IMG/VR virus record: IMGVR_UViG_3300018917_000003
Reading direction: 5' to 3' (one strand)
From: a virus
Length of the DNA stretch: 64,000 nucleotides
In this document: positions 5,408-25,063 of the stretch, in pieces
Position numbering within the stretch: position 1 is the stretch's first letter
Layout of the letters: each line of letters begins with the position of its first letter
Position numbers and translations under genes: made by a program
The notes under the pieces: model-generated
Told to the model about the DNA's origin: nothing
Seen by the model: only the letters and a program-made list of their open reading frames with translations
The model's database searches: none

Positions 5408-5662
5408 TCTGCGGTATCCAAGCGAGTTAATACCGATCGGCTGGCGATTGCGCTTGAGGGTGGCACGGTTTGCTATCCCCCCAACTGGCAAGGTATTGAA
5501 GAGATGAAAAACTTTTCTACAAAAGACAGAAAAGCTGTCGCGGGTCATGATGACTGCGTAATGGCTTGGGCAGCGGCTTGGGTCTGGATTGGGGAGTTGA
5601 TAACTGTTGAAGAAAATTTGCTGGCGCGCGCGTTTGGGTTATGTCGCAAACTAGCGCCCTAA
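5408..5662 (+). pseudogene. Remnant of a second, divergent terminase large-subunit 3' end
   Basis: In frame after the terL TAA. It translates to ..RLAIALEGGTVCYPPNWQGIEEMKNFSTKDRKAVAGHDDCVMAWAAAW..ENLLARAFGL, parallel to the last ~70 aa of terL (..GNVKLVRGDWNDRYLNALYKF..VNDFTDASSGAF..SNLLVRAFG). There is no plausible start codon. Confidence 0.6.
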
Positions 5663-7042
5663 CAATTTAGCTTGCTTAATGTTTTCTGGAAGTGGATCAA
5701 CGACTACAGTCCACAATCGCTCAACTCCTGCTTTTTTGGCTGCTTCGTAAATAAACGAATTACCTACTACTTCGTATTCATAATCCTTAGTTTGCTGGAT
5801 AGGTACAGGTATCCAGTTTCGTCCAGCGGCTTTAATTAGTTTTGCTGCTTCTGCTACAGATTCTGCTGACTCAGAATGCGGTTCACCTGGATCTATTTTT
5901 CTTATTTCAAGGTGCATCATTCTTCCGGTATTCTCGCTTGATCGTCTTCTTTCAAATTCTTGTGGCGTTTCATTCTCTACTTTTTTAGGTTTTGCTGTGC
6001 TGATATTGGCTGCTGATTGGGAGTTGGTTGCTCTTTTGTTTTTTAGTTTAACTTGGCTCATGACAGCTTCTTCGTTTTCGTCATCAATTATGATTGCGGG
6101 TAAGTTTTCTCCGCTCAATGGCTTCATTGCTTTAGCAACAATTGCTGCCGCAACTTGAAATTCACCCGACACTATTTTAAACCCTTCACCTTTTCGTCGT
6201 AATATTGGACTTTCAATAAAACCCCCTACTTTTAGCATTGCTTCTGCTGCTGCCATCAATTCATTTTGATCAAATTCTTGTGTGGGTGCTGTTATACGTT
6301 TAACAGCAATAAGCGAAGGAATAAGTTTTATACTACTACCTTTATCTTTTGGTGCATCCACCTCCAGCGCTTTTGCCGCAGCAATTTGTTCCGCCATCTT
6401 TTGAGCCGTCATCTTCCCTGATGTTGTACCCGTGGTTAGCGAAGTAGTTGCAGGTGTTGTTGTCGCAGCCGTCGGCGTTTTGATTTTGGCAGCAATTTGT
6501 CCAGCGATTTCCTGCACTTCTGGCGACATCGGCTGCTTGCAAGGCTTCCCCATCGCACGACATACCGCACCGCACGGGAATGTTTTGCCGGGAGTGCAAG
6601 TCAAGGTTTTTCCGGACTTGTTAGCTTTTGCTTTGACACCTATCTTGGCTTTTGTTGGCGCATCAGCGCGAAAAAACCAGCTATCTAGCTTTTGCTCAAT
6701 CGCCCCTGTTTCTGAAATATCAAAAGCCTCCCGCGCCGAATAAATTGTTTTGAACCGATAGGCATTCTCTGCCTCAGCCAGCAATGAGTCGGCTTTGCTC
6801 GCGGTTTTGCTACCTACTGGCTCATAGGATACCGTGTTAGTTTTCATGTTCAGAATGTACTGAAAAGTCGTTCCATCAGCAATAAATTCGCCAACAATAT
6901 TTCCGCTGGGGCTTTTTCCATAAGTTTTAATGCGGTCGATGCCAGACGTATAATAAATGTTTAATATTTTTAGTAATGATTTAGAAATTTCGGCATTGTT
7001 GCCTCCAGTTTCAGTTAAACCGTTCATTGTAGTAGCTTGCAT
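5651..7042 (-). CDS. Paralogue family member P5: divergent Cys4 N-module plus two ParB/Srx-like C-terminal domains
   Basis: N-part GEFIADGTTFQYILNMKTNTVSYEP and CTPGKTFPCGAVCRAMGKPC parallel the other family members. The C-part has two ParB-like units (..GGFIESPILRR..FKIVSGEFQVAAAIVA and ..NWIPVPIQQTKDYEYEVVGNSFIYEAAKKAG). AGGAGA lies 8 nt upstream of the ATG at 7042. The ORF track extends to 7102. Confidence 0.7.
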   Translation of the reverse strand: MQATTMNGLTETGGNNAEISKSLLKILNIYYTSGIDRIKTYGKSPSGNIVGEFIADGTTFQYILNMKTNTVSYEPVGSKTASKADSLLAEAENAYRFKTIYSAREAFDISETGAIEQKLDSWFFRADAPTKAKIGVKAKANKSGKTLTCTPGKTFPCGAVCRAMGKPCKQPMSPEVQEIAGQIAAKIKTPTAATTTPATTSLTTGTTSGKMTAQKMAEQIAAAKALEVDAPKDKGSSIKLIPSLIAVKRITAPTQEFDQNELMAAAEAMLKVGGFIESPILRRKGEGFKIVSGEFQVAAAIVAKAMKPLSGENLPAIIIDDENEEAVMSQVKLKNKRATNSQSAANISTAKPKKVENETPQEFERRRSSENTGRMMHLEIRKIDPGEPHSESAESVAEAAKLIKAAGRNWIPVPIQQTKDYEYEVVGNSFIYEAAKKAGVERLWTVVVDPLPENIKQAKLLGR

Positions 7043-7058
7043 TTTATTCTCTCCTGAG

Positions 7059-7325
7059 TTAGTAAATTCTATCTGGCTCGTGTTCCGGCGGTGTTCCTTC
7101 ATCTATTATTTTTCCGTTCCACGCTTCTACTGCTGCTTCAGCGATCGTTATGTCGGGCCAGGGATTGGACGGGGAATACAACATAAAGAATGGTTCGTCG
7201 ATCATTGCGGTTCGTATTTCGTTTTGAGTCCACTCATTTAATAAGTCGGCTAAATCTTGATTATTGCTTGTCCATGTGCTATTTTCAATTACTGCATCAG
7301 CCTCGGAGAACTTAACTGTTGGCAT
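7059..7325 (-). CDS. Small acidic hypothetical protein
   Basis: 88-aa ORF. The base after the stop of 7325-8833 is its start, which suggests coupling. No motif recognised. Confidence 0.5.
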   Translation of the reverse strand: MPTVKFSEADAVIENSTWTSNNQDLADLLNEWTQNEIRTAMIDEPFFMLYSPSNPWPDITIAEAAVEAWNGKIIDEGTPPEHEPDRIY

Positions 7326-8833
7326 TATTTTCCTCTTAGTGTGTTATGAATAAAAGCAAAATATTCGGGATCGGTTTTTGCAAAAGCTACCGGATCTCGG
7401 TACATCATTTCCATGCCCATAGACAGGATTTCAGAGTTTTTATCGCTATTAGTCTTCTTCCCCATATAAGCTTTTGGCCACTTGTCCGGCTTCGCTACCT
7501 CATTATCCCCGTAGTTTGAGTTTCCCGTCAACTCGCTGAGCTTTTTCCATTTCTCTCCGGCGGTTCGACTCTCAAAAAACTTCTGCACTTTATCGTGGAT
7601 TTTTGGGTCTGATTCTTCTAGCCAGTGCGCGGCTTCGTGGACAACAACCTCTACAGGGGCTTTATCCGCCATGTAGATGCCACCTCTTCCGTAGAACGAG
7701 CGATCGGCTGCTTTTCCAAAACTGGCATCAAGCGCTGCCACTTTTAAGGTTTTCCCGTCAACAGTATCGACTCCTACCATTTTCTTGAAAGCGTTTATTC
7801 CTGCCACCAGTTTGGTTGATTGCTCTTGGTTTAACGTCCCTGTCTTGGCTTGTGTTTTTGGGTTAGCTAAGCCACCGTTAAACCCTTTCATTTTAGATGG
7901 TGGGTTTACATATAGAAATTGCCTGGCAACGTTTGAAATAAAGTCTTCGTATTTTTTGCTTTTTGCTTCAACCTCTTCGTTCCAGTTTGCTGAGTAAAAC
8001 TTTTTAGCCTCTTTTGACCCCTTTTTTTCTTTAATTTGATTAGCTTGCTTAGTAACTTCTTGTTTTTTGTCAATTATTAATTTTTGCTCACCACCTATAG
8101 CTTCGGATATTTTTTGCAAATAGTTTGCAACTTCAGCCCCAGATTTCATCTTACTGGCTGCCTGCCGTGCAAGTATTTTAGCTTCTGTAAAATTACCTGA
8201 ATCAAATGCTTTTTTTAATCCTGCCATTAACGGGTCTATCGGTGTTTGCTTCCTAACTCCAGCCTTAAACATCCCCGTCCGTTCTTTCTCTAGCGTGTTT
8301 GCTTTAGTTTTTAGGTCGTTAGCAGTGCCGTACCGCGACCACTTGTTATTGCCCTTTGAGTCTAGGTATTTAGCTAACGCTCGGATTTTGTCAATCCGCC
8401 CTTGACTGACGCTCTCGATCGAACCACCAGCCCGTTTAGTCTCTTGTCCTGCACTATTAATCCAACAGGTATGTTGCAAGGGAATGCAGATACTTCCACA
8501 CCCGTAACTGATAGCAGTACAGCGTGGCTTTTTTCCACCTTTTACGGCGTCATACCTAGATTCTAGGGATGTATACCCTAGCGAAAACACGTCAAGAAGT
8601 CTTGAGTCTGTTGCGCTGTCAGTGTTAGTTGTGGCGATCGCAGGTTTGTACCCGATGCGAGATTTTTGAACGGAATAACTGAAGATTCGGCGATTCCTTA
8701 AATCTTGAAACTTGCCAGTGATGTTTCCGTTGTCGCCAATGTCAAACGACAGCAAATTTACTCCTGATCCATAAGCGTCGTTGTTCTCAATGAGTGCTTC
8801 TAATTGTTGTATGAATTCATTTAAGTCTTGCAT
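7325..8833 (-). CDS. Paralogue family member P3: Cys4 N-module plus C-terminal HExxH zinc-metallopeptidase-like domain
   Basis: N-module LEALIENNDAYGS..ITGKFQDLRNRRIFSYSV..IGYKP..CTAISYGCGSICIPLQHTCW..SQGRIDKIRALAKYL. HEAAH is at codons 399-403 (nt 7625-7639). Confidence 0.75.
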   Translation of the reverse strand: MQDLNEFIQQLEALIENNDAYGSGVNLLSFDIGDNGNITGKFQDLRNRRIFSYSVQKSRIGYKPAIATTNTDSATDSRLLDVFSLGYTSLESRYDAVKGGKKPRCTAISYGCGSICIPLQHTCWINSAGQETKRAGGSIESVSQGRIDKIRALAKYLDSKGNNKWSRYGTANDLKTKANTLEKERTGMFKAGVRKQTPIDPLMAGLKKAFDSGNFTEAKILARQAASKMKSGAEVANYLQKISEAIGGEQKLIIDKKQEVTKQANQIKEKKGSKEAKKFYSANWNEEVEAKSKKYEDFISNVARQFLYVNPPSKMKGFNGGLANPKTQAKTGTLNQEQSTKLVAGINAFKKMVGVDTVDGKTLKVAALDASFGKAADRSFYGRGGIYMADKAPVEVVVHEAAHWLEESDPKIHDKVQKFFESRTAGEKWKKLSELTGNSNYGDNEVAKPDKWPKAYMGKKTNSDKNSEILSMGMEMMYRDPVAFAKTDPEYFAFIHNTLRGK

Positions 8834-9041
8834 TAGATTGTTGTTTTATTACCTGTGTAGTTTTGTAGTTGGCTCGATCAATCAATCGTTGCTTTAGCTC
8901 TTTTGCGGCTTCAGCATCTCCAGAATTTGCTGCAATAGTAATATATTCTAATGGATAAATAGCATCAATATCGTCTGAGTCAAGTTGTAGTTTGTTCATT
9001 TTGATGTTTTTTGTATAATGTTCTTTCATAGATTGTCTCAT
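8817..9041 (-). CDS. Small acidic hypothetical protein (start uncertain, possibly 8999)
   Basis: ORF bridging two paralogues and overlapping both neighbours. No SD seen at either candidate start. Confidence 0.35.
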   Translation of the reverse strand: MRQSMKEHYTKNIKMNKLQLDSDDIDAIYPLEYITIAANSGDAEAAKELKQRLIDRANYKTTQVIKQQSNARLK

Positions 9042-10548
9042 ATTTTTGAGAAAATCGTGTCATTATTTCGTGTTGGTGATTAGCTTCAGCGTCTTTGTAT
9101 TTTAGTTCTCCTGAATTAACTTTAGCTTGAAAATCTTTTTTGACTCCTATTTCAATATTTATTAATGCGTCTATTATTTCATTCCTTGACTGAAATTTCC
9201 AACCGTCTTTGGGTGGCTTTATACTATACCGATAACCGGGGGAGACTGCCCTCATCTCGACGGCTGCGACAGTATAAAGTAAATCAATATCTTCCATAGA
9301 AAATGAATTGCCTAGATATCTTGGATCTGTTTTAGAATGTTCAAGTCCCCTTGGGTGATTGTGGGTGATGATTGTATCTTTCAATTGTGGAATCAGTTGC
9401 TCTGGTATTTTAACGCTATATTGCTCTCCATCTAAGAATGCAACTTGCTTCCCTTTTGAGTCAAAAGCAGCTAGTGATTCAAACTTTTGAGTTTTTAGTT
9501 TATCTTCTAATACTAAAACTTGCTTAGGAGTAGTAAATTGGGCTGTTTCAGTTGGTGGCTTTTTAACACCAGAAGCTATTAATCGCTCTCTCGCTCTTTC
9601 TAGATTGCCAGCTTTAGCCGCTAAAAGTTCAGCACTGCCATACTTTGACCATTTCTGATTCCCGTTTGCCGCCAAGTATCGCGCCAACGTCCGAAGCTTA
9701 TCAATCCGTCCCTGACTAATGCTGGCTACCGCGCCGTTTGCCTTTTTTACTTTCTGTCCAGAACTGTTAATCCAGCAAGTATTTTGCAGTTGAATACAAG
9801 CTCTACCACAGTTATAACTGACTGCGGTACAACGGGGTTTTTTCCCATTTTTGACGGCATCTTGCCTGACCCCTAGCGAAGTGTAACCAAAAGAGAAAAT
9901 GTCAAACAGTTTGGCTGCAACCACACTATCCGCCCGATCGAGCGTCAATGCAGGTTTATATCCAATCCGAGTTTGCTCAACAGAGTAGCTAAAAACCCGC
10001 CTATTCCAAGCGTCCTCAAACTTCCCCGTGATGTTGCCGCCGCTAGCAACTTCAAACGATAGTAAGTAAATATTTAAGCCATAAGCGTCGTCACTTTCGA
10101 TCAATGTCTCTAGCCGTTGCACAAGCTCCGCCAATTCGTCAGCATCTCTCTTTACTTTAGACTGCTGGGCGATATCGTTTTGTAGTTGGGTGATCGAATA
10201 CTGGCTAGCCGCCCCAAACAGTTGCTTAGGGACGTGCTTCAAAAATGTCTCAACAGCCTCATCCAAATTTTCAGCCCCTAAGACATATTTATATTCGTCG
10301 ATCGCCCCTGTCGGAGTAATCTGCACTATTTTAAACACTGTTGGCGTGTCACTAACCACGTATACATCTAAGGCTTTACCATCTAACCCCGCACCCCACG
10401 ATCCTCGGATGCAGCCATAGTTGCACGTCATTGGTGGACTGAAAGAGAATCGTGGTTCCCCGGTTCTCGTAGTAATGTTTAGTGGGATACCATTCCATTG
10501 TCTAACTTCTTTAGTCGGCTCGCTGTTAGCATCTGTGTAATATCTCAT
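8980..10548 (-). CDS. Paralogue family member P2: pyrophosphatase-like N-domain, Cys4 module and C-terminal JAB/MPN-like motif
   Basis: aa 1-125 contain CNYGCIRGSWGAGLDGKALDVYVV, which resembles the family I PPase core NYGYI..DGDPxDVLV. The central module is about 70 percent identical to P1. The C-terminus has THNHP(x17)SFSMEDI at nt 9352-9363 onward. Confidence 0.7.
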   Translation of the reverse strand: MRYYTDANSEPTKEVRQWNGIPLNITTRTGEPRFSFSPPMTCNYGCIRGSWGAGLDGKALDVYVVSDTPTVFKIVQITPTGAIDEYKYVLGAENLDEAVETFLKHVPKQLFGAASQYSITQLQNDIAQQSKVKRDADELAELVQRLETLIESDDAYGLNIYLLSFEVASGGNITGKFEDAWNRRVFSYSVEQTRIGYKPALTLDRADSVVAAKLFDIFSFGYTSLGVRQDAVKNGKKPRCTAVSYNCGRACIQLQNTCWINSSGQKVKKANGAVASISQGRIDKLRTLARYLAANGNQKWSKYGSAELLAAKAGNLERARERLIASGVKKPPTETAQFTTPKQVLVLEDKLKTQKFESLAAFDSKGKQVAFLDGEQYSVKIPEQLIPQLKDTIITHNHPRGLEHSKTDPRYLGNSFSMEDIDLLYTVAAVEMRAVSPGYRYSIKPPKDGWKFQSRNEIIDALINIEIGVKKDFQAKVNSGELKYKDAEANHQHEIMTRFSQKYETIYERTLYKKHQNEQTTT

Positions 10549-10658
10549 TATTTTTTATTAATGGTTTTTATTTGGCTATAGTTTTTACTAAACCTTCTAT
10601 ATTCTCTAGATTTTGACAGTGCTTCGCTGTATAATCTCAATATACCATTCATTTTTTT

Positions 10659-10847
10659 ATGATATCCCAAAACAAAGACAATCCAAGTAAATTTGCAGCT
10701 AATTCAAACAAAAACGTACCTAGATCAATTGGTGAAAAACCAATGAGTGCAGAACGCGCTGCAAGATTTTTAGATACACAAGAAGAATTCTTAGAAAGTC
10801 TAGCACTTAGACCGGAAAGAAGCAAAAACGAATACGAGAAGAAATAG
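10659..10847 (+). CDS. Possible small opposite-strand gene in the P1-P2 gap
   Basis: 62-aa ORF in an otherwise ORF-free 338-nt gap. TATAAT lies at 10630-10635, but the nearest TTGACA is only 11 nt upstream. No SD. Confidence 0.25.
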   Translation: MISQNKDNPSKFAANSNKNVPRSIGEKPMSAERAARFLDTQEEFLESLALRPERSKNEYEKK

Positions 10848-10886
10848 AATAAGACATATCGCCAAATTAAGAAAGATCGAACTTAT

Positions 10887-12197
10887 TTAAACCTCTTTAA
10901 CGGGAATAGTTATGATTAATCCGCCTGGTGTGTGAAAAGTTTTTGTGTCGCCAGCAAGTTTGTATCTCGCTCCTTTTGGAACAAGAACTTCATCTTCTTC
11001 TGGAAATTTTGAAAGGTTTCTTATTGTAACACCTGACTTGTTTTCTATTACTTCATATATAATAGAAACCTTCTGACCTTTTTTGCTTGCTAAGGCAAAT
11101 GCACGTGCCTGAGACTCAGACGAACTAAAGCTTGACATAGCGTTTAGTTCATGAGAGTCTCCGTTTTGCAATTTTTTAATAGCGTCATCAAGAGCCTGTT
11201 GAGATTCTAGTTGTACCCCTCTATAGATAGATCTATAAAATTTGGGCATTTTTTCAATATATTGATTGATAGCTTTTACTTTGGATTTCATCTTAGTAAT
11301 GACTTCACTTGATTCTCCTGAGCTTAGTTTTCCAGTTTTTTCTAGTTCTCTATATTTTTTGTAACCTGCTCCGCTAAACTCTGCGAGAGCATCCAACGAT
11401 GCTTTCACTTCTTTATCTTTCATTCCAGTTACTTTTGATATTTTCCTGACAACTTCTGGATTTTTGATATCGGAACTAGAACCGAACGCAGCAAGTAAAT
11501 TATCCTCATCCTCATCTGCGCCAGAAGTAGCAGAAGCCGGAATTACATCATGCGTATTATCAATACTAAAGGGCTTTATTTTTGCAGTAGGTTGTGCAAT
11601 ATTAGAAGAAAATAATTTACTCCTGGCAGCTTCTAAAACATTTGCTTTAGCCGCTAAAAGTTCAGCACTGCCATACTTTGACCATTTATGATTCCCGTTC
11701 GCCGTTAAGTATCGCGCTAGCGTCCGAAGCTTGTCAATGCGTCCTTGGCTAATATTGGCAACCGCGCCACCCTCTTTTTTTACTTTCTGTCCAAAGCTGT
11801 TAATCCAGCAAGTGTTTTTTAATTGAATGCAAGCCTTGCCACAACTGTAACTAACAGCAGTACAACTAGGTTTTTTGCCACTTTTGACAGCATCCCATCT
11901 AACTCCCAGTGATATGTAGCCGGAGGAGAAAATATCAAATTGTTTGGCTGCTGTAGCACTGTCCGCCCGATCGAGCGTCAACGAAGGTTTATAACCTATT
12001 CGATTTTTTTCAATAGAGTAGCTAAAAATTCGATTGTTCCAGGTATCTTGAAACTTTCCAGTAATGTCGCCGTTGCTAGCAAGTGCAAATGAAAGCACGT
12101 AAAAATTCGAGTTGTATGCGTCGTCACTTTCTATCAACGCCTCTAACTGCTCTACAAAGTCCGTCAGTTCATTGTTCGTTTCTACACGATTTGTCAT
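10887..12197 (-). CDS. Paralogue family member P1: Cys4 N-module plus C-terminal ADP-ribosyltransferase (R-S-E type)
   Basis: The C-terminal ~120 aa carry IYRG (R about 326), FSSS (about 357-360) and EEDEVLVPKGARY (ExE about 401-403). This is the classical R / S-T-S / E-x-E triad of C3/Alt-like ARTs. Its start overlaps the portal stop. Confidence 0.8.
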   Translation of the reverse strand: MTNRVETNNELTDFVEQLEALIESDDAYNSNFYVLSFALASNGDITGKFQDTWNNRIFSYSIEKNRIGYKPSLTLDRADSATAAKQFDIFSSGYISLGVRWDAVKSGKKPSCTAVSYSCGKACIQLKNTCWINSFGQKVKKEGGAVANISQGRIDKLRTLARYLTANGNHKWSKYGSAELLAAKANVLEAARSKLFSSNIAQPTAKIKPFSIDNTHDVIPASATSGADEDEDNLLAAFGSSSDIKNPEVVRKISKVTGMKDKEVKASLDALAEFSGAGYKKYRELEKTGKLSSGESSEVITKMKSKVKAINQYIEKMPKFYRSIYRGVQLESQQALDDAIKKLQNGDSHELNAMSSFSSSESQARAFALASKKGQKVSIIYEVIENKSGVTIRNLSKFPEEDEVLVPKGARYKLAGDTKTFHTPGGLIITIPVKEV

Positions 12198-13660
12198 TAC
12201 TCTTCCTCCTCAAAAGCTGCTGCATCGTCGCCCCCTAATTCCATCGGCGGCGCGTTTTGTTCTTCTTCTAATTTTTTGCGCTTGTCAAAGTCTAAGTTTA
12301 TTTTATACTGCGGAGTCGTGCCACCAAACACTGAGTTAGCAACTTCTTCTGGCATAAGCACCTGCGAACTAATATAGCTGCTGTTCGCCCCGGCATAAAT
12401 AGAAAATAAATCTGCTTTTTCTTTCTCGGTCATGGGGTGGGTGTCAATAAAGTTCCACCGAAAACCATTAGGTATATTACCTTTTGTTGGTGAGTTTTTA
12501 GCTAGCCAGCACAGCCAATGGAAGCGGTTTAGTTGGCGCTTCATGTGTCTGTTCTGATATTGGCGGACGGTTTTATTCATGTCCGTTTGTTCGCTACCAC
12601 CACTGACCCCTAGTTTGCCCGCTGGGGATACTCCTAATAGGTAGGTGCGAGGCAAATTAGAGGCTGCTACACATTCATCAATTGTCTTTTCTACTGCCCC
12701 AAAAATACCTTCAAAATTTAGCGAACTTTCTTGTATATCTTCCGTATCTTTGTCAATCACGCGGTACTTAAAACTCGACTCCATCATTGCAGCTTCAGCA
12801 ATTCGTTTCCGTAAAAATTCTTCATCTCCCGCGATAATCATTTTAAATAAATCTTTTATTTTCCAAGTTTTTTTGATAATTTCAGGCAATAAAGAAGCAG
12901 CTAAGCTAATAGCCAGATCGTACCGAGCGAGTGGTTGAGCGAATGTTTCTAAAACTGAATTGCCCCAGCCTTGATTACGTTGTCGAGAACGATAACTTAA
13001 GCGGGTTGCGCCAGCAAATCTCAACACGCGCGATCGGTGAATTAGCCCAGTGTTTTTCTGTCCAATATTCCGCGCCAAACTTAACCGATAGTGAGTCGGT
13101 CGGCTCATGTCCCACGTAAAATCGTCTTGCATTAAAAAATTCTCGTTTTTTTCTAATGACGCATGACGCTCTGGCGTAACAGCCCAACGGTCAAATACTC
13201 GCAAAAAATTGATAGTTTTAATATTTTTTTCGTCTACCTCTTCCCAAGCTTCCCGCCCGTCGTCAATGTCAATATAGATAGCTGAGCCACCTGTTAGCCG
13301 TTCCTCTCTCATTGCTTCATTGAAGATATCAGCAGTTGATATTTCGTCTCCAACATCATCAACTAATCTGTCTTGGTATTCAATGAATTGACCTATTAAA
13401 TCTGGTGCATTATTTTCGCCCGTTATCTGATATTCAATCCACTCTCTAGTACATTCGTCGGGTAACACATCAATTAGATTCTGCACCATCCAGTGATATT
13501 CGTACAAATGGTCTATGTCTTGAGGTGCAAGTTTGCGAAGTGCTTGAATCTCGGTGTATACACTTCGATCACGCGCTGTCCCTTGTCCGGTGTAGGCATT
13601 GGCAAACAGTCCAGGTAAAAACGAATCTTGTCTACTAAATAAATCGTTTAAGTCGCTCAT
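12197..13660 (-). CDS. Portal protein (resembles DUF1073 / HI1409-type portals)
   Basis: 487 aa. ..RLTGGSAIYIDIDDG.., ..PTHYRL.., ..IHRSRVLRFAG.., ..WGNSVLE.. match my memory of that portal family. It occurs with the capsid and scaffold types that usually accompany it. Confidence 0.75.
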   Translation of the reverse strand: MSDLNDLFSRQDSFLPGLFANAYTGQGTARDRSVYTEIQALRKLAPQDIDHLYEYHWMVQNLIDVLPDECTREWIEYQITGENNAPDLIGQFIEYQDRLVDDVGDEISTADIFNEAMREERLTGGSAIYIDIDDGREAWEEVDEKNIKTINFLRVFDRWAVTPERHASLEKNENFLMQDDFTWDMSRPTHYRLSLARNIGQKNTGLIHRSRVLRFAGATRLSYRSRQRNQGWGNSVLETFAQPLARYDLAISLAASLLPEIIKKTWKIKDLFKMIIAGDEEFLRKRIAEAAMMESSFKYRVIDKDTEDIQESSLNFEGIFGAVEKTIDECVAASNLPRTYLLGVSPAGKLGVSGGSEQTDMNKTVRQYQNRHMKRQLNRFHWLCWLAKNSPTKGNIPNGFRWNFIDTHPMTEKEKADLFSIYAGANSSYISSQVLMPEEVANSVFGGTTPQYKINLDFDKRKKLEEEQNAPPMELGGDDAAAFEEEE

Positions 13661-14367
13661 ATCTCACCTTCTGGGTTTTGAGGAATATTAGCAAACATTT
13701 TGGTTAGGTCAAAATCTGCCGTGTCAAGCCCCAATGCTTTGTTTATAACATCCGGGTTTTGTTCTTTATATTTCTGGTAACTTTCTGCTAGATATTGCTT
13801 GCGTCGATCCTCTGGGGATTCCTGCGAAGCATTGTAAGCTTGCACCAGTAAATTAATACTGTTGAGGTCAAACCGATCGTACAAAGCTAATGTATCTCTA
13901 ACACTGGTTGCAGCGGTTAATTGCCCGATAGTGTCAAGTTCAACGTCGCCACAACTTTTTATTGGCGGATTCCAGTTGTCAATCTCATCCCCTTCTTGCG
14001 GTTCTTGTGCTACCTCTGTATTCACGGGTTCGTCTGACTGATGTAATGCTAAAAGCTTACTAGGAAAAGCTTGGTTATCTTCTCCAATTTTGCATAAGAA
14101 CATTAATTGAATTTCTTCTGTCTCCATTAATGAAACATCCCAACCGTAGATTGTCGGTTGAGGTGGTAGATCGAGTCGAGGGAATAAATTTGCGATTTGC
14201 TGCAAAAGTGTTTGGTAGTCCGTTGCTAAAAGTGCGGTGTCCCCTTCTAAGTTATCCCAGAGTTTTGTCAACTCTTCTGTAAGAATTTGAAATGTTGACA
14301 ATCTAGAAAAGGGAACTGGGGCAATCACAATTACTTGAGGCCCCAGCCAAAACAATAAACTTTTCAC
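13657..14367 (-). CDS. Hypothetical virion-block protein
   Basis: 236-aa ORF with a 4-nt overlap on the portal start. Confidence 0.6.
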   Translation of the reverse strand: MKSLLFWLGPQVIVIAPVPFSRLSTFQILTEELTKLWDNLEGDTALLATDYQTLLQQIANLFPRLDLPPQPTIYGWDVSLMETEEIQLMFLCKIGEDNQAFPSKLLALHQSDEPVNTEVAQEPQEGDEIDNWNPPIKSCGDVELDTIGQLTAATSVRDTLALYDRFDLNSINLLVQAYNASQESPEDRRKQYLAESYQKYKEQNPDVINKALGLDTADFDLTKMFANIPQNPEGEI

Positions 14368-14375
14368 AGGTCAGC

Positions 14376-15209
14376 TTAACAAATTCGTTGTTGTGGTAGC
14401 CATTCCCATTCATACGGTTTACAGCGACCCGCAGTAATAATGGTATAAGTGACGGCGATATTTTGCTCAGCTCCCAATGGGATATCACCTTCCGCAGGAT
14501 TTAGCACCGCTTCAGGGATTTTTAGATGCCATCGTTTTTGGGTTCGAGTTTGTCCGCAAATGTTGATTTCGCACCGCTCCAGTGGAAGTCCTTCGTTTAG
14601 ACGAATAACTCCTGCTAGGTTGTTTGGAATCATCATAGACACGTACTTACCCACTAAGTCAGCGCTAAACCCTAAACCCATGTTTGCGCCAATTGCTACA
14701 ATGTTTGTTCCAGTCGGCGGCGCAGCAGCAGAATAAGTCCCTGTCATTGTTAGAGGAGTTGGCAAGCCGTCTTCCGTAAGTGTTCCTCCTATTGCACCCG
14801 CAGGAGATGCAATTACCCCAAATCCTTCCTGCCCCTCTGTGGCTGGGGGTAAGATTTGTTCAGTAATTAGCCTAGGAGCCCAGTGAATAAACGTGCTGGA
14901 TTGACCTGTTATGACTTCTGGAGTCATGCCTTCTCGCATCCCCACAGTCAATGGAGTGAACAAAGGAAAAGTGAGTGTAAGAGAGGGTCTGTTTTCGTTA
15001 ATAAATTGATCCGCTAAGACTGTCTCCCCTTGAGAAGAAGTGGTCATGATTTCCGTTAAACTAATGCCTTTGTTTAGCGTCGGATCGTTGGGAGTTGCGA
15101 CACAAACCGGAGATCCTAATTGTCCAAGTGCATTACGGAAGCGAATCGTGATATCTGTAACTGGTCTTCGACCTTGAAATGGTGAGTTTGACATAGTTTT
15201 TACCGACAA
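14376..15209 (-). CDS. Hypothetical structural protein (possible tail tube, from size and position only)
   Basis: 277-aa ORF in the minus-strand virion operon. No motif recognised. Confidence 0.55.
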   Translation of the reverse strand: MSVKTMSNSPFQGRRPVTDITIRFRNALGQLGSPVCVATPNDPTLNKGISLTEIMTTSSQGETVLADQFINENRPSLTLTFPLFTPLTVGMREGMTPEVITGQSSTFIHWAPRLITEQILPPATEGQEGFGVIASPAGAIGGTLTEDGLPTPLTMTGTYSAAAPPTGTNIVAIGANMGLGFSADLVGKYVSMMIPNNLAGVIRLNEGLPLERCEINICGQTRTQKRWHLKIPEAVLNPAEGDIPLGAEQNIAVTYTIITAGRCKPYEWEWLPQQRIC

Positions 15210-15243
15210 TTAAAGGGAAAGTGAATGCGCTAGTCTTGCTGAC

Positions 15244-15597
15244 TTAGCTAGCACTTGTTTTAGTGACAGACGTTGCAGTAACAGCTAATACAACTTCATT
15301 CTCGTCAGTTGGCGGAACAAATTGTTTTAGATCGATTAAGACGTGATTCAGCAAGCTAGATTCGCCTAACTCTCCATTAGTGTATTGAGCCGCATTTACC
15401 GCGATTCGCTGAATCCCGTTCTCTACTTCAAGTAATTTGCATTCAATAGCACTTACTGAAACTTGCTTACCGTCGGGAGTGGGCAAGATAATCGGAACTA
15501 CAAACCCTGTTTCTGTTTCTGTTGGTTGACCAGGTACAAGTTCAAGGCTGATTTTAGTCGTAGGATTTAGTTTTGCCATCTCAAATTCAATCTTCAT
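15244..15597 (-). CDS. Hypothetical structural protein
   Basis: 117-aa ORF with a 4-nt overlap on the upstream gene. Confidence 0.6.
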   Translation of the reverse strand: MKIEFEMAKLNPTTKISLELVPGQPTETETGFVVPIILPTPDGKQVSVSAIECKLLEVENGIQRIAVNAAQYTNGELGESSLLNHVLIDLKQFVPPTDENEVVLAVTATSVTKTSAS

Positions 15598-16076
15598 GCG
15601 CTAAAAACTCCTGATACATTTGCTAACTCTATGAATTCACAATGAAATCTCACTTTGAATTCAATCTCAAAAATCAAAAGCCAATCAGACTTAGGTTCTT
15701 CGTTTATGATTACGCTACCCCTGCTTTCTATCTTTTCAATATCGGGCGATAAACAAGCAAGGTGAGCTTGTAATTGAAGAAAGCTAGCGGTCAGAATGTC
15801 TTCTGCGGAACCTCTGGGAATTTGAGTATAAGTGCAGGCGCTATCAAATCGGTAGATAATCTGAAAAGGGATTGATGTCTCTAGCAAATAAGTGCTAGTG
15901 TTACCCATTCCAAGTATTTCCACTACTGAAAATCCAGACGCTTTGCCGTCAAGCCCTGCTGAGGGAGGAGCGCGAAGGTCTTTGACTGATTCTGGCGAGT
16001 TCAGTCCCCACCGATCAATTCGTAGTTGCTGACTCAACCATTCTTTTAATTTGGCTCTCAATTCACTTGGTAGCAT
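15594..16076 (-). CDS. Hypothetical structural protein
   Basis: 160-aa ORF, start/stop coupled to both neighbours. Confidence 0.6.
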   Translation of the reverse strand: MLPSELRAKLKEWLSQQLRIDRWGLNSPESVKDLRAPPSAGLDGKASGFSVVEILGMGNTSTYLLETSIPFQIIYRFDSACTYTQIPRGSAEDILTASFLQLQAHLACLSPDIEKIESRGSVIINEEPKSDWLLIFEIEFKVRFHCEFIELANVSGVFSA

Positions 16077-16552
16077 TAAATCAGTCCTGGTAAAGATCCA
16101 GCAGAGTTAGTCTTGAATAAATCACCTTTAATCGTTAAGTCGCCTTGCCAAGTCTTATTAACAGCAAGCCCTGTTAATTGAATTTCCAAAAATAGCTTTT
16201 TAGCAGGCTGATACCAAGTTGGATCGCCTTGGCTCATTCCTAGAACTTGTCCTAAATTTTGGTCAAGTATTAAAGTCTCGGTGTCTGCGGGAGCTAATAT
16301 TAGTGATAAGTCGGCGGTTGTCAGAGTCGTGTTAAGTGTGACGGTGAAATTTTTAGGCCCAATTAATTGCACGGACTCAGCCGGATTCAATGAGTCAAGC
16401 GCCAACAATCGCACCACGGGCAAAGTTTGCGTGGAGAAGCTAGTTAATGGGATTCTGGCAGAAAATTTTACGGTATCACCCTGAATAATTACCAGGTTTC
16501 GTAGCTGGCTTGGTTTCTCGTTTACTGAGAACTTAACAGAATCTAAACTCAT
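16076..16552 (-). CDS. Hypothetical structural protein (beta-rich)
   Basis: 158-aa ORF with 1-nt overlaps on both sides. Confidence 0.6.
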   Translation of the reverse strand: MSLDSVKFSVNEKPSQLRNLVIIQGDTVKFSARIPLTSFSTQTLPVVRLLALDSLNPAESVQLIGPKNFTVTLNTTLTTADLSLILAPADTETLILDQNLGQVLGMSQGDPTWYQPAKKLFLEIQLTGLAVNKTWQGDLTIKGDLFKTNSAGSLPGLI

Positions 16553-17292
16553 TACCTGCCTCCTATGCCACGATAAACATCATCAGACACCGAAAACTTT
16601 GACCGATTAACTGTGTAATGTTCGCCATTTATCGTGCCGTCATCCAACTGAATATCGGCATAAACGATCGCGGGTGTCATCAGAGAGGCAGTGTCTTGAG
16701 GTAACAGCCGAATTTGGTATGTTGCCGCCCGTGTTTTGCCGTTGTAGGTGACAATATCTTCCACTCCCAAAAACTTAACGCCACCATTCTGTAGAGTTTT
16801 CCTAAACAGCGCTTTGCTATCTAAGTGCGCCGGGTCAACTTTACCCGTAAAGGTTACGTTGACTGAGCCATTAGTCTCCGATGCCACTCGATCACCCACA
16901 ATTCTTAAGTTGAAAGCGTAAAAATCAGCCCGCGTCAGTTGATTACCGTCTAGCTGTTCCTCTTGTCCATTTTTGAGTAGAAACAGTTCAGCACTGGGAG
17001 GAAAGACGATTTTGCCAAGTAACGACAATAGTAAAAATTCATCGCGCCCCATCTTGCTATCAGCAGCGATCGCCCGACCGAATGATAGAACCAAATCGCA
17101 AGAATCTGCCCCGACTTTAGCTGAGGCTCCAAGCGATCGGCCAAACTTAAGATTTAGCTCGGTGCTGTCTTTCCCTACTCTTGACTGTGCAGTAATTGCT
17201 CGCCCAAAAGTCCACAGCGTTTCGTTAGCATTAACACTGTCAGTTCCAACTTTTGAATAAGCTCCGACTGAGATTCCAACCATAGTTATCAC
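16552..17292 (-). CDS. Hypothetical structural protein with an N-terminal ~20-aa internal repeat (..VG.DS..L.L.FGR...A..K..)
   Basis: 246-aa ORF. KVGTDS..WTFGRAITAQSRVGKDSTELNLKFGRSLGASAKVGADSCDLVLSFGRAIAADSKMGRDE shows 3-4 tandem units. Confidence 0.6.
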   Translation of the reverse strand: MITMVGISVGAYSKVGTDSVNANETLWTFGRAITAQSRVGKDSTELNLKFGRSLGASAKVGADSCDLVLSFGRAIAADSKMGRDEFLLLSLLGKIVFPPSAELFLLKNGQEEQLDGNQLTRADFYAFNLRIVGDRVASETNGSVNVTFTGKVDPAHLDSKALFRKTLQNGGVKFLGVEDIVTYNGKTRAATYQIRLLPQDTASLMTPAIVYADIQLDDGTINGEHYTVNRSKFSVSDDVYRGIGGR

Positions 17293-18080
17293 CCCCTGAT
17301 AATGATGCCGCCGGGTTCGATTGTCAGCAGGTCACGGTTCCAGCCGTACTTACCGGGGGCCAGAGTTCCCCAGTACCACAGTTCACCTTCTGACCAAATC
17401 TGATAACCACCGATCGGGCCAGTGTCAGCAGTAAATTGATCAAAAGCGAGCGGTAGCAAGTTGTCAATTTGGCGAGTCAGTAGCGGATCTCGCCAGCTTA
17501 TTAGCGCACAAGGGTATTCTTTCTCTGCCCTAGGCGCCAGTGGTTCACCTTCGCCCGTTAGCGGGTTCAGTCCAGGCTTGACAAGTCTGACTGTTACGGC
17601 GCTTTGCGGTGTAATCGCTTGACCTTTAAAAACGGCATTCAGTCGCTTGTTTCTCAGGGCAACACTGGTGCATTGCGCTAACCCGCCGCCGTTAGATTCG
17701 TCAATGGTGAAATTCTTGGAAAAGTGTGTGTCAAACAAGAAATAATCGGGAGGCTCGATCGTCACCCCGTTCCTCAAGTGTCCGGCATAGAAAATGTCAG
17801 CACCGACCGTGACTTGCCAAGAAATCGGGTTGTAGGTTGCGGTAGCTGCGGGGTACGCAAGAATAGCGCTGTTGCTGGTTTTGCCCGCGTCAGCGGCGTA
17901 CATTTTGGCGTTGTCAAGGTCAAATGGTAAATAACCACCGCCGACAACTTCGGCAATTACTCCACTGGCGTTGGGTAGCGTTGTTCCCAATCTAAGTCGG
18001 GGAACATCTGTTAACGAGAATGCGATGCCTCGGATGACGTTGAGCTGGTGTTGAACTAAAACGGGCGATTTGGTTTCCAT
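17289..18080 (-). CDS. Hypothetical structural protein
   Basis: 263-aa ORF with a 4-nt overlap on the downstream gene. Confidence 0.6.
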   Translation of the reverse strand: METKSPVLVQHQLNVIRGIAFSLTDVPRLRLGTTLPNASGVIAEVVGGGYLPFDLDNAKMYAADAGKTSNSAILAYPAATATYNPISWQVTVGADIFYAGHLRNGVTIEPPDYFLFDTHFSKNFTIDESNGGGLAQCTSVALRNKRLNAVFKGQAITPQSAVTVRLVKPGLNPLTGEGEPLAPRAEKEYPCALISWRDPLLTRQIDNLLPLAFDQFTADTGPIGGYQIWSEGELWYWGTLAPGKYGWNRDLLTIEPGGIIIRG

Positions 18081-18081
18081 G

Positions 18082-19437
18082 TTATTCTTTTAGTTGAATG
18101 TAGTGCTTTTCTTCTCCTATAAAGTTTTTTACACCTTTGTATTTACCTTCATAGTACCCTCCTGCGGATTGCAATGTAAACTCTCCTTTAGGGCTTCCAT
18201 CTATTAAAAGCTTATCAAAGTCTTTTTCTGATATTCTATTTTTTAATACATCTTTTACCATTTCTATAGGGACAAGATTTCCCAAAATAAAACTTTTATC
18301 TAACGCTTTTTGTACGCCTATCATTATTTCGTCAAAGTCAGCTTTATCTGTAATAGCTTTTCCTTTAGCATAGGGTCTGGCAAGTCCCAAAGGATCTAGA
18401 TCGGGACGGTTTTGCAATTTTTTGTCTAATGATAGTTTTTTATTGGGCGAGTTTTTAGCAAGTACCTTTTCTCCTGCGGGTTCTAACTGAACGTATTGCC
18501 TGTATCCTGCACTGTTTATTTGTATGTCATCTTTGTCAACTTGACCTCCTCCCACAAGTCGAATTTTGTCGTCACTTTGTGATTGCACCATGTAATCATT
18601 AAACTTGTCTCTAGGTACTAATTCTCCAATAGCTTTTCTAATCTCAGCAATAGGTACAAAATTATCGTAATTCTTTTCTGTATTCAACTTGTTAAAAACA
18701 TGAAGCATTACATCTTCAAACTCTTTTTCTGTTTTTATTGAATGAGTTTTGGGATTCATTGTCGGGTCTAATGTTGACTTAGTTAGCTCCGGTTTTGGCT
18801 TTACTGGCTTTTCTTCTTGGGGTTTAGTCGCCGCCTTAATCTGTTGCGCTACTTTTTCTTTCCTTTCCTCTCTAAGTTGATTTGCTTTTTTATTTCTTTT
18901 GTCTGTGATTTTATTTGCGGCTGCCGTTCGAGCTTCAGCCCCTCCTTTGTCACCCTCGGCGTATAATCTGCCCGCTTTTGCCATTAATTTATTGAGTCGT
19001 TCTTTCCCGATCGCAGACTTTCCTCCCGAAGGTGGAATCCTACAAGTTTTTAGCAACCCAATACAACTAAAGCCACAGCCGAACGCTTCAACTCCACACT
19101 TAGGCTTTTTAGTTCGCTTGCCTGTCAACTTGCCATCAATTCGAGCGTCTTCAAATAGTGATACATACCCTTCGCTGTAAGCGTCAAACCTTACGGGTAA
19201 TTCGTCCGTATTGAAAGAATCAAGTTTCACCGCTGGCTTATAGCTAATCCCGTCAACGTCAATGATAAATTCGTAGACCCTGTTATTCCAAGAGTTTTTA
19301 AATTTGCCATTAATAACGTCTTCTTTGAGCGCATAAGTCAAAACTTGAATATTGCTCCCATAAGCTTCGTCACTCTCAAAAATTGACTCTAGCTCAGTCG
19401 TAAACTCCTGCTTGAGATTAGTTAAATCGCCGCTCAT
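18082..19437 (-). CDS. Paralogue family member P4: Cys4 N-module, Lys-rich linker and duplicated ~60-aa helical C-domain
   Basis: LESIFESDEAYGSNIQVLTY..INGKFKNSWNNRVYEF..ISYKP..CGVEAFGCGFSCIGLLKTC parallels P1-P3. The C-part has two related units (FEDVMLHVFNKL..NFVPIAEIRKAIGELV.. and FDEIMIGVQKAL..NLVPIEMVKDVLKNRI..). Confidence 0.7.
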   Translation of the reverse strand: MSGDLTNLKQEFTTELESIFESDEAYGSNIQVLTYALKEDVINGKFKNSWNNRVYEFIIDVDGISYKPAVKLDSFNTDELPVRFDAYSEGYVSLFEDARIDGKLTGKRTKKPKCGVEAFGCGFSCIGLLKTCRIPPSGGKSAIGKERLNKLMAKAGRLYAEGDKGGAEARTAAANKITDKRNKKANQLREERKEKVAQQIKAATKPQEEKPVKPKPELTKSTLDPTMNPKTHSIKTEKEFEDVMLHVFNKLNTEKNYDNFVPIAEIRKAIGELVPRDKFNDYMVQSQSDDKIRLVGGGQVDKDDIQINSAGYRQYVQLEPAGEKVLAKNSPNKKLSLDKKLQNRPDLDPLGLARPYAKGKAITDKADFDEIMIGVQKALDKSFILGNLVPIEMVKDVLKNRISEKDFDKLLIDGSPKGEFTLQSAGGYYEGKYKGVKNFIGEEKHYIQLKE

Positions 19438-20199: not shown

Positions 20200-20549
20200 T
20201 TTTTAGGAGAGATAGGAGTTTTTTCGACTTCTGGCGGGCGAGTAACAAATGCGGACACGTCAACAACTTCGGGAGCAACTTCTTGGGCAACTAGCTTGGT
20301 TTCTACCGGAGTCGATACCCGTGTTGATTTCTTGGTGTCTGGTGGTGTTATTACTGTTGGTTGATCGAAAGTAACTCGAAGGATACCTTGCTCAATCCTT
20401 TGTTTTACTAGCGGATGATCCGCGTATTCTTTCCATTTCTCGGTATCAACTTCGTTCCGACCAGGAATTAAGCGTATAGGGCCGAGGAATAAATCGCCAA
20501 TTTGCTTAACCGAGCTTAGTTGTGGAAGATATTCAACGATTCCTATCAT
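20196..20549 (-). CDS. Hypothetical protein downstream of the major capsid gene
   Basis: 117-aa ORF coupled to both neighbours. Confidence 0.55.
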   Translation of the reverse strand: MIGIVEYLPQLSSVKQIGDLFLGPIRLIPGRNEVDTEKWKEYADHPLVKQRIEQGILRVTFDQPTVITPPDTKKSTRVSTPVETKLVAQEVAPEVVDVSAFVTRPPEVEKTPISPKK

Positions 20550-23722: not shown

Positions 23723-23842
23723 ATATTAAAAGTCGCTTATCCGTTGATACGCGAACAGGAGAACTCTAAACCCTATATTATCTGTAGGGTTTCTTGATGT
23801 TGATATTTAAACAGCGTTTTTACCTGAATTGGCACAAATCAG

Positions 23843-25000: not shown

Positions 25001-25063
25001 AAATATAGTTAACAAAATACTGCGAACAGGAGAACTTGCCAAGTTCGCTTATTTTTTAACTTT

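Follow-up and report, generated by a model that had tools for sequence, protein, structure and literature searches.

We place at about 70% the probability that P1–P5, five proteins encoded in the window (the whole stretch of cyanophage-like viral DNA analysed here, 64 kb), belong to a family, not described before, whose members are packaged in the virion as cargo by phages of cyanobacteria, mainly of filamentous ones. Each protein joins a constant module of ~190 aa, via a linker that is charged or of low complexity, to a variable enzymatic or DNA-binding domain. Most likely the module serves as a new 'loading handle' by which proteins are taken along in the virion. New here are the division of this module into two parts, the R-x-D-[AGS] motif in the loop between them, and the presence of the same motif in the N-termini of capsid, portal and protease/scaffold proteins.

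The first-pass annotation had listed five open reading frames sharing an N-terminal module, and all of them are present on the minus strand, four being grouped at the portal gene:

10887..12197, minus strand: P1, 436 aa, module (aa ~8-196, profile E 3e-80) and ADP-ribosyltransferase (ADPrib_exo_Tox/ART, aa 285-416); reading frame
8980..10548, minus strand: P2, 522 aa, InPase, module and C-terminal domain with an HNHP motif; reading frame, Pfam, profile
7325..8833, minus strand: P3, 502 aa, module (aa 1-190) and C-terminal HEAAH domain; reading frame, profile, phrog_33618
18082..19437, minus strand: P4, 451 aa, module (aa 4-197) and duplicated helical C-terminal domain; reading frame, profile, BLAST
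5651..7042, minus strand: P5, 463 aa, divergent module and two ParB_N-like stretches; reading frame, profile, Pfam
12197..13660, minus strand: portal protein with an S-R-Q-D-S motif at aa 10-13; Phage_portal_3, E 3.5e-49
7059..7325, minus strand: 88-aa reading frame between P3 and P5, inside the cluster; no PHROG match

As annotated, P1, P2, P3 and P5 come directly after the portal gene, and the P4 gene has head-completion genes on one side and a gene for a Gp80-like fibre on the other. The P5 frame is open up to 7102, and its start at 7042 is supported because the homologues P0016 and P0017 begin at the equivalent methionine. Both tblastn within the window and a profile scan recover the shared module: that of P1 is 71% identical to that of P2 over 203 aa (E 1e-96), 55% to P3 (E 3e-74), 37% to P4 (E 2e-29) and 24% to P5 over 131 aa (E 9e-5). 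P5 keeps all invariant positions, namely the glycine of the beta-meander, the R-x-D-A motif and four cysteines, and its subfamily (P0014-P0016) is picked up by the family profile. The cysteines are spaced C-x6-C-x3-C-x6-C in P1–P4 and C-x7-C-x3-C-x6-C in P5, just as had been described. A six-frame profile scan of the window found exactly these five copies of the module and none beyond them.

Downstream of the module, BLASTP revealed no mutual relatedness among the five C-termini, in agreement with the earlier reading. The C-terminus of P1 scores above the Pfam cut-offs for ADPrib_exo_Tox (27.8 bits; cut-off 23.4) and ART (26.9; cut-off 22.3), with the ART motifs YRG, SSFSSS and E-D-E readable, and that of P5, scanned alone, exceeds the cut-off for ParB_N (27.7 bits; cut-off 26.3) in two stretches; both assignments had been made from the sequence beforehand. 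The proposed duplication in P4 gives only a weak self-match (E 1e-3) and is supported by matches to the second repeat of orthologues (up to E 2.6e-12). PaV-LD ORF078R is an orthologue of P4 and occupies the same syntenic position. For P2 and P3, the motifs behind the labels 'JAB-like' and 'HExxH peptidase' are there, but the C-termini have no Pfam match at E<=10 and no PDB sequence match; that of P3 falls in PHROGs of unknown function (phrog_33618), and PaV-LD ORF080R/081R carry an orthologous domain. The annotation of P2 as module plus C-terminal domain had missed an InPase (PF18823, 55 bits, aa 13-123) in front of the module (aa ~136-325).

The module had not been recognised as a described domain, and that it is previously undescribed is supported by our searches. 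It lacks a match in Pfam, for the five proteins (E<=0.1) as well as for 139 homologues, and in NCBIfam and PDB sequences; a PDB fold search with the confident model gave no match either (best E 0.38, TM 0.2), and a BFVD fold search gave significant matches only to members of this family in cyanophages, themselves uncharacterised. Identity with MuF was rejected: there is no Pfam Phage_Mu_F match and no MuF-like fold in BFVD, and the portal of phage CL131 carries a separate fused MuF domain.

AlphaFold2 modelling of the P1 module with a 44-sequence alignment (pLDDT 86.7, pTM 0.82) divides it as follows:

11610..12176, minus strand: P1 module as modelled, aa 8-196; helix, four-strand beta-meander, helix, loop, Cys4 mini-sheet, two helices
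11889..11900, minus strand: R-W-D-A motif of P1, aa 100-103, proposed protease site; inter-subdomain loop
11808..11864, minus strand: Cys4 cluster of P1, aa 112-130, CTAVSYSCGKACIQLKNTC; cysteines invariant in the 44-sequence alignment

That is, what had been taken for a single unit is a shared module of two separable subdomains, a predicted alpha/beta N-subdomain (helix, four-stranded beta-meander, helix) and a small, basic Cys4 subdomain, which its four invariant cysteines may hold together, either by binding zinc or as disulfides. The near-invariant R-x-D-[AGS] motif is placed by the model in a flexible loop, the sole low-pLDDT block between the two confident subdomains. The corresponding motifs and Cys4 clusters are R-Q-D-A (aa 228-231) and aa 240-258 in P2, R-Y-D-A (aa 93-96) and aa 105-123 in P3, R-I-D-G (aa 99-102) and aa 114-132 in P4, and R-A-D-A (aa 125-128) and aa 149-168 in P5. 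Packaging cannot depend on the N-subdomain alone as its signal, since some members (PaV-LD ORF080R/081R, CL131 gp044/047) have only the Cys subdomain.

An exhaustive profile search expanded the family to 367 cluster representatives at E<=1e-3 (75 at E<=1e-30). The module is usually N-terminal: 117 of 141 proteins have its start among their first 60 aa; 20 proteins carry at least two copies, and it is sometimes repeated in polyproteins of 1000–2000 aa. Its fusion partners are variable and effector-like, as anticipated: InPase, GNAT, ParB_N, ART/PARP, kinase, pentapeptide, LRAT/NlpC-P60, lipase/alpha-beta hydrolase, cutinase and LPD1, the same pool as in polyvalent proteins. Isolated phages with the module infect filamentous cyanobacteria only (PaV-LD, CL131 and two Nodularia phages), and copies per genome amount to five in the window, eight ORFs in PaV-LD and four in CL131, the latter assigned by our own profile search (gp044, E 6e-9; gp045, 5e-13; gp047, 9e-7; gp048, 8e-35). 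The polyprotein gp048 of CL131 contains at least three hydrolase domains alongside its five Cys units. In the window and its relatives, module genes adjoin the portal gene or stand among head-completion genes, and InPase is fused to the portal itself in PaV-LD and CL131. Judged from sequence comparison, the repertoire turns over fast and differs between closely related genomes: in a syntenic relative whose structural proteins are 62-89% identical, the P4 orthologue is only 51% identical, an extra GNAT-bearing member is present and the first gene after the portal is a different one. Among 185,579 species-representative genomes scanned, the PaV-type module occurs only on four MAG contigs and the window-type module nowhere. 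A P5-type gene was found on a contig with integrases and AbiEii.

The R-x-D motif extends beyond the family, to the following head proteins:

22298..23722, minus strand: head maturation protease/scaffold; Pfam DUF2213, E 1e-31; phrog_530 'head maturation protease', E 2.8e-61
20549..21469, minus strand: major capsid protein with R-M-D-G at aa 8-11; Pfam Major_capside, E 1.6e-24

Of 180 Cys clusters, 146 have R.D[AGST] no more than 45 aa upstream, most commonly at a distance of 12-15 aa. Among 45 homologues of the capsid protein, 38 have the motif at aa 5-30, preceded by a leader that varies in length and is not conserved; in portals it lies at aa 10-22 in four phages, and in the protease at aa 4-16 in three. 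The protease/scaffold of the window has five R-x-D-[AS] motifs (aa 16, 152, 287, 311 and 335) versus ~0.3 expected, that of PaV-LD 12 versus 0.8, that of S-CBS4 five versus 0.6 and that of CL131 three versus 0.4, with strong enrichment in the C-terminal scaffold half; the PaV-LD tape-measure protein is not enriched (two versus 0.5). The motif also marks domain junctions, between InPase and module in P2 (K-R-D-A, aa 133-136) and between portal and InPase in the CL131 portal (aa 503), and precedes three of the five Cys subdomains of CL131 gp048 (aa 618, 946 and 1283). From this distribution, R-x-D-[AGS] may tentatively be regarded as a putative prohead-protease cleavage site. It is also quite possible, if short of probable, that the module stays intact in the virion as a handle for packaging or DNA binding and that the motif has a structural or docking role, e.g. 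as a scaffold contact. In the model a helix and the Cys4 unit, both well predicted, flank the motif, which could cap one or the other, and the conserved Arg/Asp pair at the capsid N-arm could contact the scaffold in the way that D14 of the P22 coat protein contacts R293/K296 of its scaffold. Literature searches for DUF2213 protease specificity and for direct cleavage data at R-x-D found nothing, the latter being in line with docking. However, docking leaves unexplained why one scaffold/protease protein has 12 motif copies in its C-terminal half, why fusion proteins and polyproteins carry the motif where domains meet, and why leaders of variable length and sequence precede it in capsid proteins.

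That module proteins are incorporated in virions is supported by proteomics of CL131, a distant relative of the window phage: LC-MS/MS of CsCl-purified virions detected ORF_044, 045, 047 and 048 with 46, 56, 38 and 55% coverage (PMC6293099 SI Table 5), and these are all four module proteins of this phage. InPase had already been argued to be packaged (PMC5512222). Thus, the incorporation part of the proposed head-incorporation or ejection role is supported, while location in the head rather than the tail is suggested by the motif common to head proteins. It is unlikely, in our estimation, that the proteins are instead tail or neck structural or ejection-apparatus components (tail-lumen/pre-ejectosome), with the module as an oligomerisation or attachment domain and the enzymes mainly breaching the envelope. 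Most members in CL131, PaV-LD and PaV-LD-like contigs do lie between head-tail connector and tape-measure genes, just upstream of the latter in CL131 and PaV-LD, and CL131 gp045, at the position expected of a major tail protein, is very abundant (123 PSMs vs 86 for the capsid protein; PMC6293099 SI Table 5) in a phage in which no major tail protein was identified (PMC6293099). Lipase/alpha-beta hydrolases, cutinase and LRAT/NlpC-P60 among the partners and the peptidase-like HExxH motif of P3-type proteins would suit such a role as well. Yet four of the five window genes follow the portal and not tail genes, ART, ParB, GNAT, kinase and InPase partners have cytoplasmic targets, InPase is fused to portals, and the R-x-D motif unites the family with capsid, portal and scaffold but is not enriched in the tape-measure protein. 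It is highly improbable that the proteins are polymorphic toxins, secreted or released on lysis, with which bacteria compete, a role suggested for the MuF toxins of temperate phages; the constant N-terminus with variable C-terminus and the contig with integrases and AbiEii would fit, whereas homologues occur in purified virions, neither signal peptides nor small neighbouring genes resembling immunity genes were noticed, and near-absence from the species-representative genomes points to phage genomes and not resident prophages.

The mechanism we propose for the module resembles that of T4, i.e. removal of an N-terminal targeting element by the prohead protease at a shared short consensus. T4 packages Alt, an ADP-ribosyltransferase, and IPI-III into the head and injects them; their capsid-targeting sequence of ~10 residues is cut at L/I-x-E, a consensus shared with capsid and scaffold. 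The module family differs in its folded ~100-aa domain, retained Cys4 unit and R-x-D site, and the proteins are not homologous. Likewise, the inner-body proteins of phiKZ and 201phi2-1 are paralogous and head-internal, with conserved N-terminal regions, and are processed by the head protease at S/A/G-x-E; these jumbo myophages have other folds and another motif, and the inner body is without recognisable enzymes. MuF polymorphic toxins (MuF/SPP1 gp7 N-domain plus variable C-terminal toxin; PMC5576092) share with the module family the portal-adjacent gene, a constant N-terminal domain believed to direct head loading and variable enzymatic C-termini including ARTs, but occur mainly in temperate phages of Firmicutes rather than in cyanophages, whereas the module family has several paralogues per genome instead of one, a Cys4 subdomain and no immunity genes seen alongside. 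Polyvalent proteins (Iyer et al. 2017, PMC5512222, which also cites T4 Alt) draw on the same effectors (ART, InPase, ParB, GNAT, peptidase, LPD1) and, much as proposed here, are predicted to be packaged alongside the DNA; CL131 gp048, a true multi-effector polyprotein, resembles them. Unlike polyvalent proteins, which rely on an embedded MPTase and are stated to be scarce in cyanobacteria, the module family mostly splits its arsenal over separate genes with the same adaptor and would use the prohead protease; none of the Pfam families that came out of that study contains the module. In the Dar system of phage P1 (DarA/DarB/Hdf; PMC12810830), anti-restriction proteins enter the head during morphogenesis and are delivered with the DNA, by hierarchical incorporation between different proteins without a shared adaptor domain or homology to the module family.

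If P1–P5 are packaged cargo, as we favour, the module genes would be expressed together with the head genes, and the module would carry each protein into the assembling particle, consistent with the homologues in virions. The DUF2213 head-maturation protease might then cut R-x-D-[AGS] between the subdomains, a step we put forward tentatively, removing the N-subdomain and splitting polyproteins so that every unit begins with a basic Cys4 handle. After maturation the proteins, which are basic (pI ~9), would stay with the DNA, exit the particle at infection and be injected into the host, where ADP-ribosyltransferase, InPase, ParB-like, peptidase-like and other domains would act on their targets. 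Lipase, cutinase and NlpC/P60-like partners could act on the envelope and fit its penetration as well as host takeover; with the polyvalent-type partner pool and the differing repertoires, it is plausible that the family provides, as first suggested, an arsenal of effectors that are injected to take over the host or counter its defences.

The five proteins P1-P5, which have an N-terminal module of ~190 residues in common, are encoded in the structural region of a phage-like genome, in which every gene discussed lies on the minus strand.

Genes of the structural region, listed in minus-strand order from the protease/scaffold to P5 and followed by the large terminase
22298-23722, minus strand, head maturation protease/scaffold (DUF2213, phrog_530)
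21493-22296, minus strand, cement protein
20549-21469, minus strand, major capsid protein
19849-20199, minus strand, DUF4054 connector
18082-19437, minus strand, P4
17289-18080, minus strand, Gp80-like fibre protein, followed by several unknown genes
12197-13660, minus strand, portal
10887-12197, minus strand, P1
8980-10548, minus strand, P2
7325-8833, minus strand, P3
7059-7325, minus strand, 88-aa ORF between P3 and P5, without family match
5651-7042, minus strand, P5
3950-5359, divergent orientation, large terminase

Gene positions bear out the first-pass annotation in that P1, P2, P3 and P5 follow the portal gene. The portal-side cluster from P1 to P5 is interspersed only with the 88-aa ORF and short gaps, among them a non-coding gap of 338 nt between P1 and P2 (10549-10886) and one of 146 nt between P2 and P3 (8834-8979); no cognate immunity gene of the MuF-toxin type stands out downstream of the effector genes. 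The gene order of the window is unusual, with terminase and portal in divergent orientation and head genes upstream of the portal, similar to the scrambling published for cyanophage CL131. The opposite strand carries a giant ORF of 2445 aa (25064-32401, plus strand), which has no Pfam match and a weak match to the tape-measure family phrog_1686 (E 8e-10). Elsewhere, the window encodes a large tail-fibre-like protein (36273-39902, minus strand; phrog_454 and others) and an unknown protein (40137-42866, minus strand; phrog_15468), a C-5 cytosine DNA methyltransferase (2129-2845, minus strand), a homologue of the DNA polymerase III beta-clamp (58263-59426, plus strand) and an IS605 OrfB/TnpB-type gene (60532-61608, plus strand; OrfB_IS605 E 3e-27, Cas12f1-like TNB domain E 1e-24).

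The module represents a real, sizeable and previously undescribed family. As already suspected in the first-pass annotation, it does not correspond to a described domain: no Pfam family covers it in P1-P5 (E<=0.1) or in 139 homologues (E<=1e-3), NCBIfam contains no match, a profile search of PDB sequences retrieved nothing significant (best E 0.3, cystine-knot proteins), and Foldseek found no similar solved structure in the PDB (best E 0.38, TM about 0.2). AlphaFold2 yields a confident model from a 44-sequence alignment (pLDDT 86.7, pTM 0.82), which supersedes a weak model based on 13 sequences (pLDDT 64). It consists of a helix, a four-stranded beta-meander, a second helix, a loop of lower confidence, a Cys4 three-stranded mini-sheet and two further helices. 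The four cysteines are invariant, and their spacing (C-x5-7-C-x3-C-x6-C) lacks the CxxC knuckles of zinc ribbons or zinc knuckles. Relative to P1, module identity is 71% in P2 (E 1e-96), 55% in P3 (E 3e-74), 37% in P4 (E 2e-29) and 24% in P5 (E 9e-5), which keeps every invariant position. Since the P1-P3 modules are only 65-81% identical in DNA, they are not recent duplicates, and recent gene conversion among them was rejected.

The family becomes visible only by exhaustive profile search. Word-indexed protein search returned three matches for P1 alone and a handful of relatives overall, whereas an exhaustive HMMER search of 1.84 billion representatives of clusters at 50% identity revealed 367 proteins at E<=1e-3, 75 of them at E<=1e-30. 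Queried with the whole region, megablast found no match in 50,697 phage records, an IMG/VR scan with the P1 module detected no relative, and a six-frame profile scan of the window disclosed no copy beyond the five. Species-representative genomes of GTDB contained no match to the window-type module and only four MAG contigs matching the module type of cyanophage PaV-LD. Among isolates, the family is limited to phages of filamentous cyanobacteria, and the module-bearing phages infect the bloom-forming genera Planktothrix, Aphanizomenon and Nodularia. The module starts within 60 residues of the N-terminus in 117 of the 141 proteins with a near-complete match; in others, an InPase domain precedes it. 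In 20 proteins, which are polypeptides of 1000-2000 aa, the module is present at least twice in full or partial form.

Comparison of relatives shows that the module is composed of two separable subdomains, that is an alpha/beta N-subdomain and the Cys subdomain. In PaV-LD, eight ORFs carry the module in whole (ORF061R, 065R, 078R and 079R) or in part. ORF080R and ORF081R have the Cys subdomain at their very start, followed by a P3-type domain, ORF083R comprises only the N-subdomain, and ORF085R combines the Cys subdomain with an ADP-ribosyltransferase (ART). Here, the module is seemingly split by the unrelated 198-aa ORF084R (ORF083R/084R/085R, positions 23160-25206 of the PaV-LD locus), and this arrangement could reflect insertion into a once-single gene. 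In CL131, the complete module is found in gp045 and the Cys subdomain alone in gp044 and gp047; gp048 is a polyprotein of 1811 aa with five Cys subdomains, one of which is preceded by an N-subdomain. The Cys subdomains of gp048 alternate with at least three alpha/beta-hydrolase domains, and the Cys4 unit is therefore a repeated, per-effector element. The N-subdomain is usually present as a single copy per polypeptide.

Downstream of the module, P1-P5 are mutually unrelated. The ADP-ribosyltransferase proposed for P1 is confirmed by profile matches above gathering thresholds (ADPrib_exo_Tox, 27.8 versus 23.4 bits; ART, 26.9 versus 22.3 bits), and the YRG, SSFSSS and E-D-E elements of the R-S-E clade are readable in the translation of its C-terminus. 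The two ParB-like stretches of P5 are likewise recovered when the C-terminus is scanned alone (ParB_N, 27.7 bits versus a cut-off of 26.3); full-length P5 scores 24.8 bits, which is under the cut-off, and ParB_N is also found in six homologues with E as low as 1.3e-7. An internal repeat supports the C-terminal duplication in P4. For P2 and P3, the motifs on which the assignments as JAB-like protein and HExxH peptidase relied are visible (HNHP and HEAAH, respectively), but the enzyme classes are unsubstantiated, as neither Pfam (E<=10) nor PDB sequences provide a JAB/RadC or metallopeptidase match. Overlooked previously was an InPase domain (PF18823) ahead of the P2 module (aa 13-123, window 10180-10512). 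Partners listed by Pfam across the family include InPase, GNAT, ParB_N, ART/PARP, protein kinase, pentapeptide repeats, LRAT/NlpC-P60, lipase-type alpha/beta hydrolases, cutinase and LPD1. The PaV-LD portal also ends in an InPase domain (positions 1811-2236 of its locus), and the CL131 portal gp012 (positions 8800-12981 of its locus) is a portal-InPase-MuF fusion of 1393 aa, in which aa 788-849 weakly match the N-subdomain (E 6e-4).

The repertoire differs between related genomes. In a syntenic relative (GCA_034691305.1, contig JAXMNA010000066.1), the structural proteins share 62-89% identity with their window counterparts (capsid 88%, portal 85%), whereas identity drops to 51% for the P4 orthologue. 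The relative encodes an additional member (14990-16348 of its locus) with a P4-type module and a GNAT-like C-terminus, which is located between homologues of window genes 16552-17292 and 16076-16552, where the window has no gene. Its first post-portal gene encodes an InPase-module protein, whereas the window has the ART protein.

Evidence for presence in virus particles comes from CL131, for which LC-MS/MS of CsCl-purified virions lists 23 structural proteins (PMC6293099 SI Table 5). All four CL131 proteins assigned to the family here are on this list: ORF_044 (46% coverage), ORF_045 (56% coverage; 123 PSMs versus 86 for the capsid protein), ORF_047 (38% coverage) and ORF_048 (55% coverage, 105 peptides). 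The central proposal of the first-pass annotation, incorporation into virions, is thus supported via these homologues. Calculated pI values are 9.1-9.7 for the CL131 family proteins and 8.9-9.5 for P1-P5 as compared to 5.0-5.5 for capsid and portal. The InPase clade has been argued to be packaged and injected in a survey of polyvalent proteins (PMC5512222).

By analogy, the family resembles in function the MuF polymorphic toxins (PMC5576092), the polyvalent proteins (PMC5512222) and the T4 Alt and internal proteins. Like MuF toxins, P1, P2, P3 and P5 follow the portal and have variable, unrelated C-termini that are diverse across the family. However, searches for the MuF domain came out negative, and the family is therefore not MuF: PF04233 matched neither P1-P5 (Pfam E<=0.1) nor the 139 homologues (E<=1e-3), the confident module model had no MuF-like match in BFVD, and MuF is absent from the window ORFs scanned. 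The search was able to detect MuF, as it did so in the CL131 portal fusion. The same fusion, found alongside module proteins, shows that MuF and module coexist and speaks against the module as a replacement for MuF. With polyvalent proteins, the window shares the pool domains InPase, ART and ParB_N, and homologues add GNAT and LPD1; the common module, however, lies outside the described domain pool and the Pfam families derived from it, and the arsenal of the window is spread over several genes with one adaptor. P2 combines InPase with an unassigned second domain, a single effector region is seen in each of P1, P3, P4 and P5, and multi-unit relatives are CL131 gp048 and the homologues P0095 and P0102. 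Judged from these architectures, most members would not qualify as polyvalent in the strict sense. The T4 Alt and internal proteins carry a capsid-targeting sequence that is removed by the prohead protease. Unlike the short T4-type sequence, which is cut at L/I-x-E, the constant region of P1-P5 is a folded module of 190 aa, and its motif is R-x-D-[AGS].

This near-invariant motif lies between the two subdomains and falls within the sole low-confidence block of the module model. Of 180 Cys clusters, 146 have the motif at most 45 residues upstream, most commonly at a distance of 12-15 residues. The motif is also found near the N-termini of the capsid protein (aa 8 in the window, aa 9 in both PaV-LD and CL131, aa 5 as RMDE in the comparison phage S-CBS4), the portal (aa 10, 22, 21 and 22, respectively) and the DUF2213 protease/scaffold (aa 16 in the window, aa 5 in PaV-LD, aa 4 in CL131). 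In the remainder of the protease/scaffold, mainly in its C-terminal half, it is strongly over-represented relative to shuffled sequences (PaV-LD, 12 observed versus 0.8 expected; window, 5 versus ~0.3; S-CBS4, 5 versus 0.6; CL131, 3 versus 0.4). In 38 of 45 capsid homologues, R-x-D follows a non-conserved leader of 2-29 residues and precedes the conserved N-arm. Domain junctions carry it as well, as K-R-D-A between InPase and module in P2 and as Y-R-A-D-A at aa 503 of the CL131 portal fusion, and in gp048 it stands ahead of three of the five Cys subdomains (aa 618, 946 and 1283). S-CBS4 retains the motif pattern without having the module family, and the pattern is thus a property of the head-assembly machinery rather than of a P3-type peptidase. 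In S-CBS4 gp013, encoded directly after the portal (9161-9823 of its locus), R-F-D-A is present at residue 11.

The most economical reading of this distribution is that the head maturation protease may cleave at R-x-D followed by A, G or S, to which we give somewhat less than even odds. The literature search turned up neither a specificity for the DUF2213 protease family nor peptide-level data; reports on N-terminal capsid processing in Pam3 and T1 contain nothing decisive, the T1 capsid model beginning at residue 27 only. Taken together, we tentatively propose, at a probability of about 0.35, a 'load and cut' mechanism in which the undescribed two-part module would target effectors and effector polyproteins into the prohead, and a single R-x-D-[AGS] protease specificity would fulfil four roles. 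That is, the protease would trim capsid and portal, shred the scaffold, cut off the N-subdomain at R-x-D as a detachable targeting element, and separate polyproteins into units that each begin with a basic Cys4 handle, with which the effectors would enter the host together with the DNA.

With 367 clusters at 50% identity, the module is a fairly widespread new adaptor domain that marks probable virion cargo proteins. The survey of polyvalent proteins encountered few of these in cyanobacterial systems (PMC5512222), a gap that the present family fills. By its sequence, the module offers an easy way to list putative injected effectors from freshwater viromes, and it might also serve as a tag with which foreign proteins are loaded into these particles. 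If R-x-D indeed is the site of the prohead protease, the specificity of DUF2213 proteases would become predictable, and this family is common to many phages of enterobacteria and Pseudomonas, too.
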